46,639 nucleotides of DNA from a virus (taxonomy: Duplodnaviria; Heunggongvirae; Uroviricota; Caudoviricetes). Within the stretch, counting starts at the first letter, position 1. Each line of letters opens with the position of its first letter. The stretch lies in the IMG/VR virus record IMGVR_UViG_2529293141_000012. One strand, written 5' to 3'. Made by a program: the position numbers and the translations under genes. The notes under the pieces were generated by a model. It was not told where the DNA came from. It worked only from the letters and a program-made list of their open reading frames with translations, and did no database searches. Of this stretch, positions 1,331 to 45,866 are shown in pieces.

Positions 1331-1345
1331 GCTTTTTTATACTAA
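1331..1345. other. attL core (lambda att common core GCTTTTTTATACTAA), followed by the phage P' arm up to the int stop
   Basis: Exact 15-bp lambda core followed by GTTGGCATTATAAAAAAGCATTGCTTATCAATTTGTTGCAACGAACAGG, matching recalled lambda attP right-arm sequence. Confidence 0.85.
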
Positions 1346-3134: not shown

Positions 3135-3737
3135 ATGAGCTATTTTCTGCGCAAAAAATGGATGGTAAATTTGTCCGGGTCAGGAAAAATTTTATGGGCG
3201 CTAAACATGAAAAAAGATTCGTATCCTTATTTGATTTGCATGACAGTTTCAGGGCTGATCTTTATTTTCCTTTTCTTCTGGTGGCGGGCAGATATCTACA
3301 GGGTCACGTTTCTTAATCAGAGTATATCCCACTATTACATTCTGTTTAGCATGGGAATAGCTTTTCTGTTATCTCTGTTTTGGGTTAAGAAGGGGATAGT
3401 AAAACAAAGCGGCTGGAAGAGTCTGTCAGCATACCTTAAGGTTTATGCAGGGATGTGCATATTTGCTGGATTTTTTCTGATTATACCCCTTACGACACTA
3501 ACTTATTTTTTGCCTGGAGAGACATCGTCTTATGTTGCACCGTATCGGTATACTTCCGGTAGTTCAAAAAGTTGTTCTGGAGCTGAGGTGGATGACCCCG
3601 ATCTACATGAGAATATTCGCATTTGCTATCCGTATGGCAATTATGAGTACGATAATATTATCTATGTTGAAAAGAAAATTAATATATTAGGTGCGGTAGT
3701 GACATATGCACAGACCGCGCGTGATGATACTGAATGA
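3135..3737 (+). CDS. Hypothetical integral membrane protein (accessory moron, opposite to the early-left operon)
   Basis: 200-aa ORF in AT-rich DNA; three predicted TM helices (e.g. LICMTVSGLIFIFLFFWW) plus a Cys/Tyr-rich C-terminal domain; alternative start at 3207 (MKKDSYPY…); a stem-loop follows at about 3770-3795. Confidence 0.55.
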   Translation: MSYFLRKKWMVNLSGSGKILWALNMKKDSYPYLICMTVSGLIFIFLFFWWRADIYRVTFLNQSISHYYILFSMGIAFLLSLFWVKKGIVKQSGWKSLSAYLKVYAGMCIFAGFFLIIPLTTLTYFLPGETSSYVAPYRYTSGSSKSCSGAEVDDPDLHENIRICYPYGNYEYDNIIYVEKKINILGAVVTYAQTARDDTE

Positions 3738-4751: not shown

Positions 4752-4912
4752 ACAGCTCCCCGTTTATTATTTATCTCCTCAGCCAGCCGCTGTGCTTTCA
4801 GGGGATTTCTGATAACAGAAAGGCCGGGAAATACCCAGCCTCGCTTTGTAATGGAGTAGACGAAAGTGATCGCGCCTACCCGGATATTATCGTGAGGATG
4901 CGTCATCGCCAT
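4724..4912 (-). CDS. Small early-left protein, lambda orf60a-like
   Basis: 60-62 aa ([28 protein letters not shown]…); start overlaps the exo stop as in lambda. Confidence 0.55.
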
Positions 4913-11929: not shown

Positions 11930-12424
11930 ATGAGAAAATTTATTTTAGCCTTTGTCATAAGTGCCTCGTTTACAGCAAATGCTGGTGTAGAGAAGTTAGG
12001 GCCGTGGATAACAAAGTCTGAGATAAATAAAATGACTGACCAGACTGACTTTGTGGCTCTTAATTTATCACCAGATTCATATAACAAAGCAGGTACTGAT
12101 CGTGCAACTTCACTGGTGTTGCGTTGTAGTGATAACAAAACAGATGCCTATTTATCATTCAATGATTATATGGGTTCGGACAACCCAAGAATTACAGTGC
12201 GGTTAGATGGCGGAAAGCCGGTCAAGAGTGTTTGGGGTGGTGGGGAAGGCGGTGATTCTGCATTTGCTCCACAACCAATACAATTTATAAAGACCTTGGC
12301 TAAGCATAAAAAAGCCATTTTTGGGTTTGAACCTTATGGATCAACTATGCAAGTAGTTGAGTTTGACTTGTCTGAGATTGATAAGGTTGTGGAAAAAATT
12401 TCACAGTCTTGCAATTGGAAATGA
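11930..12424 (+). CDS. Hypothetical secreted protein (Sec signal peptide), accessory moron
   Basis: 164 aa, signal peptide MRKFILAFVISASFTANA; strong SD AAGGAG; AT-rich; intrinsic terminator immediately downstream. Confidence 0.6.
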   Translation: MRKFILAFVISASFTANAGVEKLGPWITKSEINKMTDQTDFVALNLSPDSYNKAGTDRATSLVLRCSDNKTDAYLSFNDYMGSDNPRITVRLDGGKPVKSVWGGGEGGDSAFAPQPIQFIKTLAKHKKAIFGFEPYGSTMQVVEFDLSEIDKVVEKISQSCNWK

Positions 12425-12888: not shown

Positions 12889-13305
12889 ATGAATAAAAAC
12901 GACCTTGAAGCATTATCTGACACTAGGCTTAATGAGGCCAAATGCTTGCTTGATCATGGCTTTTTTCATGGTGCATATTATCTTTGTGGGTATGCAGTTG
13001 AATGTGCATTGAAGGCCTGTATTGCCAAGTCATTTTTACAACATGAGTTTCCAAACAAAAAAGTCGTAAATGATTCATATACTCATGATTTGTCGCAACT
13101 TCTCAAAATTGCCAACTTACATCAAATTTTGATTGCTGACGCAAAAAATGATGTTTCGTTGGAGATTAACTGGTCGGTCGTTAAAGACTGGAGCGAGCAA
13201 TTTAGATACGACAATAACATAAGTAAAGCTATGGCCGAACAATTGTTTGATGCTGTAGGTGACCAAAATTCTGGAGTTTTGAAATGGGTAAAAGCACACT
13301 GGTAA
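12889..13305 (+). CDS. HEPN-domain-like protein (putative toxin or abortive-infection effector)
   Basis: 138 aa; helix GAYYLCGYAVECALKACIAK and downstream THDLSQLL resemble the HEPN fold signature; AT-rich; TATAAT about 35 nt upstream. Confidence 0.55.
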   Translation: MNKNDLEALSDTRLNEAKCLLDHGFFHGAYYLCGYAVECALKACIAKSFLQHEFPNKKVVNDSYTHDLSQLLKIANLHQILIADAKNDVSLEINWSVVKDWSEQFRYDNNISKAMAEQLFDAVGDQNSGVLKWVKAHW

Positions 13306-13685
13306 TCGGCAGAGAGTTGACAAAAGATATGGAATTCTCAGGTCAATTTTTATTAAAAAAACTCAAGTTACAGAATTTAACCATTGATGCTGCAATGTGG
13401 TTTTATTACCCAGATCTATCTTGGAGATATATTTTAGTTATCAGTGACTTCTCAGAACGTGGACCGGCAGAAATATATAGAAAAATCAGTGAGATAAATA
13501 GAAACAGCATATCAAAAAAGTATAAGCCGATACCATTAGAAGCAATTGAGGCTAAGGGGGATTCAGCTTTTATTTATAAAATGTTAAAAGGATTTGCTAG
13601 AGTCAACGATGGTAAAGTTCGCGTTTCTAATTCTATGGTAAATGGTTTAGAAATCGTTGACTGTCTGATCTATGAGTTAAAATAA
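13284..13685 (+). CDS. Hypothetical partner protein, translationally coupled to the HEPN-like gene
   Basis: 133-aa ORF overlapping the upstream gene by 22 nt with SD GGAG; no recognisable family; stem-loop at about 13761-13785 downstream. Confidence 0.45.
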   Translation: MGKSTLVIGRELTKDMEFSGQFLLKKLKLQNLTIDAAMWFYYPDLSWRYILVISDFSERGPAEIYRKISEINRNSISKKYKPIPLEAIEAKGDSAFIYKMLKGFARVNDGKVRVSNSMVNGLEIVDCLIYELK

Positions 13686-15969: not shown

Positions 15970-17052
15970 TTAGAACTGGTAAACCAGACCTACAGCAACG
16001 ATATCATCGGTAGCAACGCCAGATGCTTTCGTGAAATCGCTCTTATCAATCAGGTTGATTTTGTAATCAACAAAAGTGGACATATTTTTGTTGAAGTAAT
16101 AGGTTGCACCTACATCAATATATTCAACCAGGTCCTGATCACCCCACGCACCCAAGTCTTTTCCTTTAGATTGCAGGTAAGCAACGGACGGACGCAGACC
16201 GAAGTCGAACTGATATTGTGCAACTACTTCGAAGTTTTGTGCTTTGTTGGCAATATGGTTATTACCAAAAACAGTCATGTTCTGGGTTTCAGAATAGGTG
16301 GTAGCCAGATAGATGTTGTTCGCATCATATTTCAGACCAGCTGCCCATACTTCAGCATTTTGACCAGATGCATTCAGGCTGTTGTTACCGTAGATAACCT
16401 GATTATTAGTGCGGTCAGATTTAGCATAGGTTGCACCTACACCGAATCCTTCATACTCATAAGTAGTGGAGAAACCGAAACCATCACCATTAGCTTCAGT
16501 TACGTCAGTGCGGTCATTTTTACCCTGATACTGAGCAGCAAAGTTCAGACCATCAACCAGACCAAAGAAGTCGTTGTTACGATAAGTTGCAACACCAGTG
16601 GTGCGACCAGTCATGAACACATCTGTTTGGGTCCAGGTATCGCCACCGAATTCTGGCAGAACGTCAGTCCACGCACCGATGTCATATGCTACACCGTAGT
16701 TACGGCCGTAATCGATTGAGCCGTAGTCCCCGAATTTCAGGCCTGCAAATGCAAGACGGGTTTTGTCTTTGGAGGAGCCTTGAGATTCAGCGCGGTTGCC
16801 TTTGAATTCATATTCCCACTGACCGAAACCAGTCAGTTGATCGTTGATTTGGGTTTCACCTTTGAAGCCAAGACGGGCATAAGTAGTATCACCATCATCT
16901 GCATCATTAGAGGAGAAGTAGTGCTTGGCATTAACTTTCCCATATAGATCCAGCTTGTTACTGTCTTTATTATAAATTTCAGCTGCCTGAGCAGACATCG
17001 CCATCAGTACTGATGCAGCTACAGCAGAAATTGCCACTGTTAATTTTTTCAT
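15970..17052 (-). CDS. nmpC: Prophage-encoded general porin (OmpC/NmpC/Lc family)
   Basis: 360 aa with signal peptide [23 protein letters not shown], porin motifs and C-terminal …VGLVYQF; same location (between Q and lysis, opposite strand) as nmpC in DLP12 and lc in PA-2. Confidence 0.9.
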
Positions 17053-18845: not shown

Positions 18846-19136
18846 TTATGAGCAATACACCCGCGCTTCCAGCGGAGTATAAATGCCTAAAGTAATAAAA
18901 CCGAGCAATCCATTTACGAATGTTTGCTGGGTTTCTGTTTTAACAACATTTTCTGCGCCGCCACAAATTTTGGCTGCATCAACAGTTTTCTCCTGTCCAA
19001 TTCCCGAAACGAAGAAATGATGGGTGATGGTTTCCTTTGGTGTTACTGCTGTCGGTTTGTTTCCAACAGTAAACGTCTGTTGAGCACATCCTGTAATAAG
19101 CATTGCCAGAGCGGCAGAAAACAACATTTTTTTCAT
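18846..19136 (-). CDS. bor: Bor lipoprotein (serum-resistance-associated)
   Basis: MKKMLFSAALAMLITGCAQQTFTV…EARVYCS matches lambda Bor; ATG at 19136 preceded by AGGA. Confidence 0.9.
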   Translation of the reverse strand: MKKMLFSAALAMLITGCAQQTFTVGNKPTAVTPKETITHHFFVSGIGQEKTVDAAKICGGAENVVKTETQQTFVNGLLGFITLGIYTPLEARVYCS

Positions 19137-19501
19137 CTTATTATCCTGCATTGTTAAAAACGGCAGAATCCTATGTGACAACAATTAAACGATAGTTAAA
19201 TGGATTGATGAAAATTAAAACTAAAACTATATAGGTGGATGCTCAGCCTATTGGAGGAGGGGGGCACTCAGAATCCTGTGGAATGAAATAAACCGCTCTA
19301 TCTGTCCATTACCCTTTTAGCTGCGCTGTATCGTCGCCGTATTCCCGCATTAACCATGACCGTAGCCCGACGGGGAATTCCTTCTGCGTGAGTGTGCGGG
19401 AATAATCAAAAACGATGCACACCGGGTTTTACTGTGCTGACAGACGCAGGGTTACCCTCATAGTCGCTTTTCCGGTGCGATGGTGGAAGAAACCGGGATG
19501 T

Positions 19502-19696
19502 TTATTCATCATCACTTTGGATTGATGTATATGCTCTCTTTTCTGACGTTAGTCTCCGACGGCAGGCTTCAATGACCCAGGCTGAGAAATTCCCAGACCC
19601 TTTTTGCTCAAGAGCGATGTTAATTTGTTCAATCATTTGGTTAGGAAAGCGGATGTTGCGGGTTGTTGTTCTGCGGGTTCTGTTCTTAGTTGACAT
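19502..19696 (-). CDS. Small basic protein (64 aa), possibly YlcI/DUF3950-like
   Basis: ORF between bor and cos; family assignment is from memory and uncertain. Confidence 0.45.
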   Translation of the reverse strand: MSTKNRTRRTTTRNIRFPNQMIEQINIALEQKGSGNFSAWVIEACRRRLTSEKRAYTSIQSDDE

Positions 19697-25640: not shown

Positions 25641-25973
25641 ATGACGAGCAAAGAAACCTTTACCCATTACCAGCCGCTGGGCAACAGTGACCCGGCTCAT
25701 ACCGCAACCGCGCCCGGCGGATTGAGTGCGAAAGCGCCTGCAATGACCCCGCTGATGCTGAACACCTCCACCCGTAAGCTGGTTGCGTGGGATGGCACCA
25801 CCGACGGTGCTGCCGTTGGCATTCTTGCGGTTGCTGCTGACCAGACCAGCACCACACTGACGTTCTACAAGTCCGGCACGTTCCGTTATGAGGATGTGCT
25901 CTGGCCGGAGGCTGCCAGCGACGAGACGAAAAAACGGACCGCGTTTGCCGGAACGGCAATCAGCATCGTTTAA
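25641..25973 (+). CDS. D: Head decoration protein D
   Basis: 110 aa from the ATG at 25641, [27 protein letters not shown]… matches lambda gpD. Confidence 0.95.
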
Positions 25974-26028: not shown

Positions 26029-27046
26029 ATGTCGATGTACACAACCGCCCAACTGCTGGCGGCAAATGAGCAGAAATTTAAGTTTGATCCGCTGTTTCTG
26101 CGTCTCTTTTTCCGTGAGAGCTATCCCTTCACCACGGAGAAAGTCTATCTCTCACAAATTCCGGGACTGGTAAACATGGCGCTGTACGTTTCGCCGATTG
26201 TTTCCGGTGAGGTTATCCGCTCCCGTGGCGGCTCCACCTCTGAATTTACGCCGGGATATGTCAAACCCAAGCATGAGGTGAATCCGCAGATGACCCTGCG
26301 TCGCCTGCCGGATGAAGATCCGCAGAATCTGGCGGACCCGGCTTACCGCCGCCGTCGCATCATCATGCAGAACATGCGTGACGAAGAGCTGGCCATTGCT
26401 CAGGTCGAAGAGATGCAGGCAGTTTCTGCCGTGCTTAAGGGCAAATACACCATGACCGGTGAAGCCTTCGATCCGGTTGAGGTGGATATGGGCCGCAGTG
26501 CGGCGAACAACATCACACAGTCCGGCGTCACGGAGTGGAGCAAGCGTGACAAGTCCACGTATGACCCGACCGACGATATCGAAGCCTACGCGCTGAACGC
26601 CAGCGGTGTGGTGAATATCATCGTGTTTGACCCGAAAGGCTGGGCGCTGTTCCGTTCCTTCAAAGCCGTCAAGGAGAAGCTGGATACCCGTCGCGGCTCT
26701 CATTCCGAGCTGGAGACAGCGGTAAAAGACCTGGGCAAAGCGGTGTCCTATAAGGGAATGTATGGCGATGTGGCCATCGTCGTGTATTCCGGACAGTACG
26801 TGGAAAACGGCGTCAAAAAGAACTTCCTGCCGGACAACACGATGGTGCTGGGGAACACTCATGCACGCGGTCTGCGCACCTATGGCTGTATTCAGGATGC
26901 GGATGCATTGAGTGAGGGTATTAATGCGTCTCCCCGTTATCCGAAAAACTGGAAGACATCCGGCGCGAGAGTTCACCATGATTCAGTCAGCACCGCTGAT
27001 GCTGCTGGCTGATCCTGATGAGTTCGTGTCCGTTCAACTGGCGTAA
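26029..27046 (+). pseudogene. E: Major capsid protein E, apparent frameshift near the 3' end (in-frame ORF stops at 27012)
   Basis: MSMYTTAQLLAANEQKFKFDP… matches lambda gpE to about residue 310, then reads KTSGARVHHDSVSTADAAG*; the lambda-like C-terminus AREFTMIQSAPLMLLADPDEFVSVQLA is encoded in the +1 frame ending 27044-27046; total length 8 nt short of lambda. Confidence 0.6.
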
Positions 27047-27087
27047 TCATGGCCCTTCGGGGCCATTGTCTCTCTGTGGAGGAGTCC

Positions 27088-27483
27088 ATGACGAAAGATG
27101 AACTGATTGCCCGTCTCCGGTCGCTGGGTGAGCAACTGAACCGTGATGTCAGCCTGACGGGGACGAAAGAAGAACTGGCGCTCCGTGTGGCAGAGCTGGA
27201 AGAGGAGCTTGATGACACGGATGACGCAGCCGGTCAGGACACGTCTGTCAGCCCGGAAAATGCGCTGACCGGACATGAAAATGAGGTGGTATCAGCACAG
27301 ACGGATACCGTGACTGATACGGCTGCTCTGGTCACGGTTGTGGCACTGGTGACGCTGCATACCGATGCACTTCACGCCACGCGGGATGAACCTGTGGCAT
27401 TTGTGCTGCCGGGAACGGCGTTCCGTGTCTCTGCCGGTGTGGCAGCTGAAATGACAGCGCGCGGCCTGGCCAGAATGCAATAA
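27088..27483 (+). CDS. FI: DNA-packaging protein FI
   Basis: 132 aa from the ATG at 27088 (SD GGAGG), MTKDELIARLRSLGEQLNRDVSLTGTKEELALRVAELEEELDD…. Confidence 0.9.
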   Translation: MTKDELIARLRSLGEQLNRDVSLTGTKEELALRVAELEEELDDTDDAAGQDTSVSPENALTGHENEVVSAQTDTVTDTAALVTVVALVTLHTDALHATRDEPVAFVLPGTAFRVSAGVAAEMTARGLARMQ

Positions 27484-44394: not shown

Positions 44395-44670
44395 GTGGCT
44401 TCTGTTTCTATCAGCTGTCCCTCCTGTTCAGCTACTGACGGGGTGGTGCGTAACGGCAAAAGCACCGCCGGACATCAGCGCTATCTCTGCTCTCACTGCC
44501 GTAAAACATGGCAACTGCAGTTCACTTACACCGCTTCTCAACCCGGTACGCACCAGAAAATCATTGATATGGCCATGAATGGCGTTGGATGCCGGGCAAC
44601 TGCACGCATTATGGGCGTTGGCCTCAACACGATTTTACGTCACTTAAAAAACTCAGGCCGCAGTCGGTAA
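44395..44670 (+). CDS. insA: IS1 InsA
   Basis: 91 aa, [43 protein letters not shown]…. Confidence 0.95.
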
Positions 44671-45092
44671 CCTCGCGCATACAGCCGGGCAGTGACGTCA
44701 TCGTCTGCGCGGAAATGGACGAACAGTGGGGCTATGTCGGGGCTAAATCGCGCCAGCGCTGGCTGTTTTACGCGTATGACAGTCTCCGGAAGACGGTTGT
44801 TGCGCACGTATTCGGTGAACGCACTATGGCGACGCTGGGGCGTCTTATGAGCCTGCTGTCACCCTTTGACGTGGTGATATGGATGACGGATGGCTGGCCG
44901 CTGTATGAATCCCGCCTGAAGGGAAAGCTGCACGTAATCAGCAAGCGATATACGCAGCGAATTGAGCGGCATAACCTGAATCTGAGGCAGCACCTGGCAC
45001 GGCTGGGACGGAAGTCGCTGTCGTTCTCAAAATCGGTGGAGCTGCATGACAAAGTCATCGGGCATTATCTGAACATAAAACACTATCAATAA
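44589..45092 (+). CDS. insB: IS1 InsB (expressed as the InsAB' transposase by frameshift)
   Basis: 167-aa ORF overlapping insA in the -1 frame. Confidence 0.9.
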
Positions 45093-45122
45093 GTTCGAGT
45101 CATTACCAATTGGGTGGATGAT

Positions 45123-45866
45123 ATGGCAACTACATGTTCAGTTATATTGATTTTGGAGTCCTTTGATGTTTATTTCGGAAAAGAGAGTGTGTTTCTGGAG
45201 AGAGGTTCATCTGTACTTGTCGACTCTAGCTCTAGAGATTTTTTCCTGACATATCCTGAAAGAGTGATAGTGGCGGATTTTGGCGCTGAGTTTATTAGTC
45301 GCTATTTGAAAGCTAATAACTTAAGGGATATTTCTGATTGTAGGGAATATCCATCTTATTTAAAAATAAACTTTGCTGACTTCAGTTTAATTAAAGGATT
45401 AATTAGTTGGGCTAATCACTGTGCTGAATACATAGAAATTTTTGATGAGTCTATTGCTTTTACATGTCTCTCTGCATTTTCTTCTGAAAAACAATTTGGA
45501 GTATTTCTGTTTGGATGTTTGAAAAGCACTGGGGCTAAAGTTAAAACGATTATTCATACGGATTTATCTGCACCATGGCGTCTTAAGGATATATCATCAA
45601 GATTATATCTCAGCGAAAGTTTACTAAAGATGAAATTGAAAGAAGAGGGGGTATCATTCAGTAAGATCATACTTGATGAGAGGATGCAAATGGCTGAATA
45701 TTTACTCAGCACTCGTTGTTATCCTATTAGTAAAGTAGCTAAGGTCTGTGGTTATGCCAGTGTCTCATACTTTACTTATGTATTTAGACGTTATTTTGGT
45801 GTTTCTCCAAGTCAATACTCTCAGAGGAGTTCAGAAAGTAAAATTCTTACTCACCAGGGAATCTGA
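45123..45866 (+). CDS. AraC-family transcriptional regulator, AppY/EnvY-like
   Basis: C-terminal AraC HTH (ISKVAKVCGYASVSYFTYVFRRYFGVSPSQY); AT-rich gene; first ATG at 45123, only about 15 bp from the IS1 end (the track begins at GTG 45114). Confidence 0.8.
   Translation: MATTCSVILILESFDVYFGKESVFLERGSSVLVDSSSRDFFLTYPERVIVADFGAEFISRYLKANNLRDISDCREYPSYLKINFADFSLIKGLISWANHCAEYIEIFDESIAFTCLSAFSSEKQFGVFLFGCLKSTGAKVKTIIHTDLSAPWRLKDISSRLYLSESLLKMKLKEEGVSFSKIILDERMQMAEYLLSTRCYPISKVAKVCGYASVSYFTYVFRRYFGVSPSQYSQRSSESKILTHQGI

Follow-up and report, generated by a model that had tools for sequence, protein, structure and literature searches.

A probable natural frameshift in the major capsid gene E of an otherwise intact lambda-like Escherichia coli prophage

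In capsid proteins of the HK97 fold, the C-terminal strands come back to complete the core of the subunit. Amber mutants in gene E of phage lambda form no head-related structures, and they make active tails and lyse the cell normally. Slipped-strand mispairing at a tandem duplication classically ends in the loss of a single unit, and Farabaugh and Miller are said to have described in 1978 a frameshift hotspot in lacI made of three CTGG units. Lambda gpE is a member of the PF03864 family with the HK97 fold (PDB 7VI9 and 7SJ5). Defective lambdoid prophages of E. coli O157 Sakai can be induced, packaged and transferred with the help of co-resident prophages (Asadulghani et al. 2009; PMC2669165).

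The locus described here lies in a window of 46,639 nt, the whole stretch of DNA that was analysed (IMG/VR record IMGVR_UViG_2529293141_000012). Residues 1-312 of its gene E product are about 97% identical to lambda gpE, and the D-E-FI gene order and lambda spacing are kept; unlike in lambda, the reading frame breaks after Gly312. The E ambers are experimental nonsense point mutations, whereas E of the window carries a natural frameshift whose phenotype is predicted. Like the Streisinger-type hotspot in lacI, the window family has a perfect short repeat, a one-unit change and two lineages in which it occurs; unlike the CTGG repeat, the repeat in E has just two units and loss alone is seen. The window prophage also resembles those of O157 Sakai in being lambda-like and apparently disabled by a small lesion in a recognisable genome, and differs from them in that one lesion was found and that its other parts look intact. 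A further likeness is a capsid pseudogene of E. coli strain DEC5E, which shares the 8-nt deletion, the repeat, the length of 1017-1018 nt and the neighbour genes on a background diverged by 1.8%. The window is best read as an E. coli prophage, inserted at the lambda attB (ybhC-bio region) and intact elsewhere, in which a loss-of-function frameshift has recently arisen. The features in and around E are as follows.

25641-25973, plus strand: head decoration gene D, intact, upstream neighbour of E (tblastn, 110/110 residues, gapless)
26029-27012, plus strand: frameshifted major capsid gene E, upstream frame (ORF list, PF03864 match, split tblastn)
26958-26965, plus strand: sole surviving ATCCGGCG unit, the deletion junction (alignment and repeat search)
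26960-27046, plus strand: stranded native C-terminal segment of E in the +1 frame (ORF 26912-27046, gpE identity, conservation in homologues)
27088-27483, plus strand: DNA-packaging gene FI, intact (full-length tblastn match)

Gene E starts at ATG 26029, where the ORF list instead opens at an in-frame upstream GTG (26002), and its frame closes at TGA 27010-27012 to give a product of 327 aa. Residues 1-312 are native (through Gly312), and residues 313-327 are read out of frame as ARVHHDSVSTADAAG, a tail of 15 codons followed by the TGA. The initial annotation had counted 17 unrelated residues here; the number is 15, since the KTSG preceding the break is native to this allele family (NWKTSGDPARE in phage ev099 and in the intact twin of the window protein, NWVTTGDPARE in lambda). 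The same annotation was right that the native C-terminus is intact in the +1 frame, where the ORF at 26912-27046 ends in PAREFTMIQSAPLMLLADPDEFVSVQLA and a stop, identical to lambda gpE 314-341. This stranded segment encodes P314-A341 and retains the native TAA at 27044-27046. Its other two measurements also hold: FI starts at 27088, 41 nt past the native E stop, which is the gap found in lambda (E end 7160, FI start 7202), and E measures 1018 nt from start to native stop, compared with 1026 nt in lambda. When an intact E protein was searched against the window by tblastn, it matched in two pieces, each in a frame of its own. Chance can be set aside: the frame adjoining E, which elsewhere shares 96-98% identity with known E genes (the closest phage, ev099, at 98.0%), holds an exact 28-residue match to the gpE C-terminus.

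Alignment to lambda gene E, which the initial annotation had named as the check on its frameshift, bore out both the deletion and its position. Across the window, DEC5E, lambda and ev099, E contains one 8-nt gap and zero other indels. Where ev099 reads AAGAC-ATCCGGCG-ATCCGGCG-CGAGAG, the window reads AAGAC-ATCCGGCG-CGAGAG, and the intact two-unit stretch encodes T-S-G-D-P-A-R. A repeat search found the perfect two-unit ATCCGGCG tandem in ev099 (L003:2429-2444) and no ATCCGGCG tandem repeat in the window. E of the window thus differs from two-unit alleles by exactly one repeat unit, with the junction otherwise unchanged. A small deletion between CCGGCG repeats had been proposed at first; the 8-nt deletion stands, and the repeat is a perfect tandem 8-mer rather than CCGGCG only. 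Separately, the C-terminal coding part of E holds an imperfect 13-nt tandem repeat (GCTGATGCTGCTG / GCTGATCCTGATG, 85% identical; window 26995-27020, plus strand), which is shared with ev099 and is another possible slippage site.

The sequence pattern suggests the following course of events. The ancestral E allele would have held the perfect duplication ATCCGGCG-ATCCGGCG, and slipped-strand mispairing during replication would have taken out one unit. Translation would then depart from the native frame after Gly312, add 15 unrelated codons and stop. The result would be a 327-aa product from which the last 29 residues of gpE are missing, save for an Ala-Arg that recurs by coincidence.

We judged the reality of the deletion from agreement between independent public assemblies. 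By exact-sequence look-up, the 327-aa product occurs on 19 contigs from NCBI, JGI/IMG, Logan and ENA, a count that may include isolates assembled more than once by different pipelines; these contigs reach up to 567 kb. The product carries at least four distinct GenBank protein accessions and is found in 33 blocks of the contig index. Over 6984 nt, two assemblies match the window at 100% identity, one an NCBI draft genome (GCA_012546975.1) and the other from a JGI sample (3300039357), and an IMG/VR contig (L009, UViG_2660238269_000005) holds the same allele, differing from the window solely by two 1-nt homopolymer indels. The intact twin of the protein, with the 8 nt restored, is also present verbatim in public data (18 contigs; UniProt A0A3P5DKQ5, at the protein level).

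The initial annotation had left an assembly error as the alternative, in which the genome truly has two ATCCGGCG units and one was lost in assembly. In its favour, the deletion recurs in a single genome among 3137 complete ones, and a rare variant in draft-type sequence is always somewhat suspect. Against this, an artefact would be expected in one assembly or platform and in an error-prone context, and the allele comes from four sources in a context with no homopolymer. A two-copy 8-mer is far below the k-mer length of assemblers, the error-like differences that were seen are the 1-nt homopolymer indels of L009, unlike the loss of an 8-nt unit, and the same deletion is present in the closed O55:H7 genome of another lineage (DEC5E), whose type of truncated protein is on 25 contigs. 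We therefore regard an artefact as very improbable and the 8-bp deletion as, in all likelihood, genuine and heritable. The two indels of L009, at its positions 4852 and 5552 (window 27814 and 28515), shorten G6 to G5 in FII and C4 to C3 in U, and are probably sequencing errors in that assembly.

The window protein matches Pfam PF03864 (Phage_cap_E) strongly (E = 5.4e-62, 210 bits, cut-off 22.9), with residues 5-311 aligned to positions 1-301 of the 329 in the profile; for the repaired protein the match extends over 1-328. In-frame translation of the window allele leaves out the last 28 positions of the profile. Because no single frame of E in the window covers the whole profile (about 341 aa), it is a pseudogene of the PF03864 family and not a functional member. 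The synteny of the head genes is present, with portal, protease/scaffold C, D, E, FI and FII. We aligned 15 intact homologues from Escherichia, Leclercia, Klebsiella, Cedecea, Trabulsiella, Salmonella, Erwinia and Plesiomonas. Across this set, which reaches down to 69% identity, the final 30 residues hardly vary; the block GDPAREFTMIQSAPLMLLADPDEFVSVQLA ranks with the best-conserved stretches of gpE, and D313 and P314 are invariant. The repaired protein aligns from 1 to 341 with residues 1-341 of the solved lambda chain, and solved relatives likewise align to the protein end (3BQW to residue 341, YSD1 to 334).

For the role of the gpE C-terminus, our literature search returned nothing specific. 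Failure of procapsid assembly is nonetheless expected, because the lost residues are highly conserved and because of the general role of this region in the HK97 core. These data argue strongly that the capsid protein would be non-functional and the prophage headless. An AlphaFold2 model built from a 16-sequence alignment of intact homologues was unusable (mean pLDDT 42.7, pTM 0.38) and was set aside.

Two accounts would spare the capsid. One holds that the 327-aa protein is a natural full-length variant with a different C-terminus, and several GenBank records do call this product simply 'major capsid protein'. In a database-wide search, however, intact relatives measured 339-345 aa with a common C-terminal block, nearly all of them aligned to just 95% of the window protein, and no homologue aligned to its last 15 residues (the last 5%). 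Moreover, the neighbouring frame still spells out every codon of the native C-terminus, the Pfam match breaks off at profile position 301 of 329, and the PGAP pipeline flags the DEC5E equivalent as frameshifted. The initial annotation had named a genuine full-length variant as what would overturn it; the alignments already refute a natural length variant, and we find the idea hardly credible.

The other account is that the gene still yields a working capsid, either through +1 ribosomal frameshifting near the junction or through a separately made native C-terminus that complements in trans. One possible recoding site is the rare Arg codon AGA just past the junction (26968-26970, in GCG-AGA-G), which would give a protein three residues short (about 338 aa). 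The trans route would begin at the +1-frame ATG 26924, which stands 5 nt after a Shine-Dalgarno-like GAGGG (26914-26918) and would start a native C-terminal peptide. Both frames are open across 26912-27012, and the alleles persist in about 19 and about 25 assemblies. Inspection of 26950-27012 found no slippery P-site codon, as UCC, GGC and GCG cannot re-pair in the +1 frame; the longest run is A5, so that there is no long homopolymer for transcriptional slippage, and no promoter, terminator or slippery-site signals of programmed recoding were found round the junction. Programmed frameshifts are normally conserved, but this two-frame layout occurs in 0 of 79 phage records and 1 of 3137 genomes. 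Recoding would also lose or alter D313 and P314, which every intact homologue keeps, and each capsid needs hundreds of gpE copies, for which low-level error frameshifting would supply too little. A working capsid by either route is thus highly unlikely.

With a non-functional capsid protein as the favoured outcome, the truncated gpE should fail to build procapsids. Induction should still lead to excision, replication, tail production and lysis, but would release no infectious particles. The expected phenotype is that of the E ambers, namely lysis and free tails with no heads. An exception would arise where a co-resident lambdoid prophage supplied a working E or recombined one in. Many E. coli strains have several E homologues, up to five per genome, and rescue of this kind is plausible.

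We compared the rest of the prophage with intact relatives by tblastn, using as queries every annotated protein of the late region of the E. coli MS15047 prophage and of the early region of PhiR70_1. The 23 late genes (Nu1, A, W, B, C, D, E, FI, FII, Z, U, V, G, T, H, M, L, K, I, J, lom, stf and tfa) are all full length and gapless except E. Likewise full length and gapless are int, exo, bet, gam, kil, cI, cro, cII, O, P, ybcN, ninE, ybcO, rusA, ylcG, Q, the porin moron, S and R. Partial alignments were obtained for xis (residues 23-110), ren (1-78) and Rz (1-153, with gaps), which look like divergent alleles. The late region is collinear with that of MS15047, the closest complete relative, at 98.1% identity, and the MS15047 span is 8 nt longer; a few other small indels relative to MS15047 fall outside coding matches. 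That E is the sole broken gene found fits a recent event. The initial verdict of a prophage 'probably defective' is therefore sound for head formation and for no more than that, all other compared genes being intact.

1331-1345, plus strand: lambda att core GCTTTTTTATACTAA, perfect, at the left junction beside ybhC
20085-43590, plus strand: late operon Nu1-tfa, collinear with the intact MS15047 prophage
44395-45092, plus strand: IS1 element (transposase matches PF03400; Pfam)
45114-45866, plus strand: AraC-family regulator

No right-hand att core was found inside the window; judged from MS15047, the right junction should fall about 225 nt past the window end. In the window as in MS15047, the stretch from the tail-fibre assembly gene to the expected right attachment site holds the IS1 element and the AraC regulator. 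The remaining features lie in the early and lysis regions.

3135-3737, plus strand: 200-aa ORF between the xis region and a TraR-like gene, on the strand opposite to the early-left genes around it; no Pfam match
11930-12424, plus strand: 164-aa ORF just past ren, with a borderline match to VasI (type VI secretion; PF11319, 26.7 bits, cut-off 26.5)
12889-13305, plus strand: 138-aa HEPN-domain ORF in the nin region (PF05168, E = 3e-6)
13284-13685, plus strand: 133-aa ORF overlapping the HEPN ORF; no Pfam match
15970-17052, minus strand: OmpD/NmpC-type porin, cargo, located between Q and S; its protein shares 98% identity with that of PhiR70_1
18846-19184, minus strand: Bor lipoprotein homologue, cargo, in the late-regulation/lysis region
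19532-19696, minus strand: YlcI/YnfO-family gene, matching residues 1-55 of the 77-aa MS15047 and PhiR70_1 proteins

The HEPN ORF and the 133-aa ORF may form a toxin-antitoxin or defence pair of the HEPN/MNT type; the pair stands in place of the SMR/ybcK/ybcL/ybcM block of PhiR70_1. The YlcI/YnfO-family gene may be truncated or have a diverged end.

The same deletion is present in E. coli O55:H7 DEC5E (NZ_CP038383.1, E3158_RS19965), where PGAP annotates 'major capsid protein, frameshifted'. Aligned without gaps over 6983 positions, DEC5E and the window show 125 differences (1.8%), which are evenly spread; 12 fall within E. Its sister O55:H7 strains DEC5A, RM12579, DEC5D and TB182A match DEC5E at 99.7% over 3 kb and keep an intact E. 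Base by base, the sole difference in E between DEC5A and DEC5E is the 8-nt unit, DEC5A having ATCCGGCG twice. Two IMG/VR contigs (L010 and L011) are also of the DEC5E type.

We next give the rarity of the allele. At a query coverage of 80% or more, the segment is present in 3137 complete E. coli genomes; DEC5E alone among them gave a gap-free match to the junction, and none of the 79 phage records has the deletion allele. In about 490 complete E. coli records the 8-nt gap, with at most one mismatch besides, is the whole difference from the query, and these records thus carry the two-unit allele. Exact-junction scans of metagenome contigs and of species-representative genomes gave no match, with a pattern that also allowed the equivalent deletion of the lambda type. 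Since no three-unit ATCCGGCG allele was found in 5426 complete genomes, there is no sign of reversible switching resembling phase variation, and slippage is seen one way only.

Because the deletion occurs both in the window and in DEC5E, 1.8% diverged, and because DEC5A is identical to DEC5E in E but for the 8 nt, the two-unit ATCCGGCG looks like a recurrent slippage hotspot. The simplest reading is that there were two separate, fairly recent one-unit losses, each from an intact allele that is still circulating, and the deletion in DEC5E is most likely an event separate from that in the window. Alternatively, the deletion could have arisen once, with homologous recombination or gene conversion then carrying it from one lambdoid prophage into another, diverged one. 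The window and DEC5E are identical across 204 bp round the junction (26854-27057), a short tract would leave no other trace, and lambdoid prophages are known to recombine, with new Stx phages arising in that way (PMC2669165). However, these two sequences also agree without interruption over 280-320 bp at other places, so the 204-bp tract is no sign of exchange. As E of DEC5E and DEC5A differs only by the 8 nt, any converted tract must fall wholly inside the 204-bp stretch, and a donor of the other type must have resided in the same cell. A perfect tandem duplication is, moreover, the classic substrate of repeated one-unit loss. A gene-conversion patch is thus less economical than two separate losses, and we consider it unlikely, if worth keeping in view. 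With two losses as the preferred account, the deletion would have arisen separately in the O55:H7 lineage, and the repeat would be a mutational hotspot.

The E deletion is an ordinary route of prophage decay and raises no new biological question. It offers a clean natural case of one-unit loss from a tandem repeat in two prophage backgrounds, and the modest point of note is that loss of the same unit in both likely marks the 8-mer duplication as a hotspot. A bolder proposal is that the duplicated ATCCGGCG is a recurrent knock-out hotspot and that capsid-less prophages are favoured, or well tolerated, in successful host clones. Here the deletion would be an early, repeatable step of prophage domestication, by which the host retains immunity and cargo (lom, bor, the porin and the HEPN-domain gene) and sheds no infectious phage. 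Recurrence of the deletion itself is likely, selection for it is speculative, and the proposal as a whole is improbable.

Prophage-prediction tools would score this element as intact, because all genes are present and in order, yet loss of E should block heads. Induction and plaque assays, estimates of phage-mediated transfer risk and genome annotation should allow for the lesion, the last in view of those GenBank records in which the 327-aa product bears the plain capsid label. The 8-mer could also serve as a small marker for two E. coli lineages.

Additionally, DEC5A, with its intact E, has a 1-nt frameshift in the tail tube gene V (L008, 5818-6557), which PGAP annotates as 'frameshifted' and which is visible as an indel relative to DEC5E. 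As DEC5A is broken in V and DEC5E in E, close strains have disabled the same prophage at different genes.
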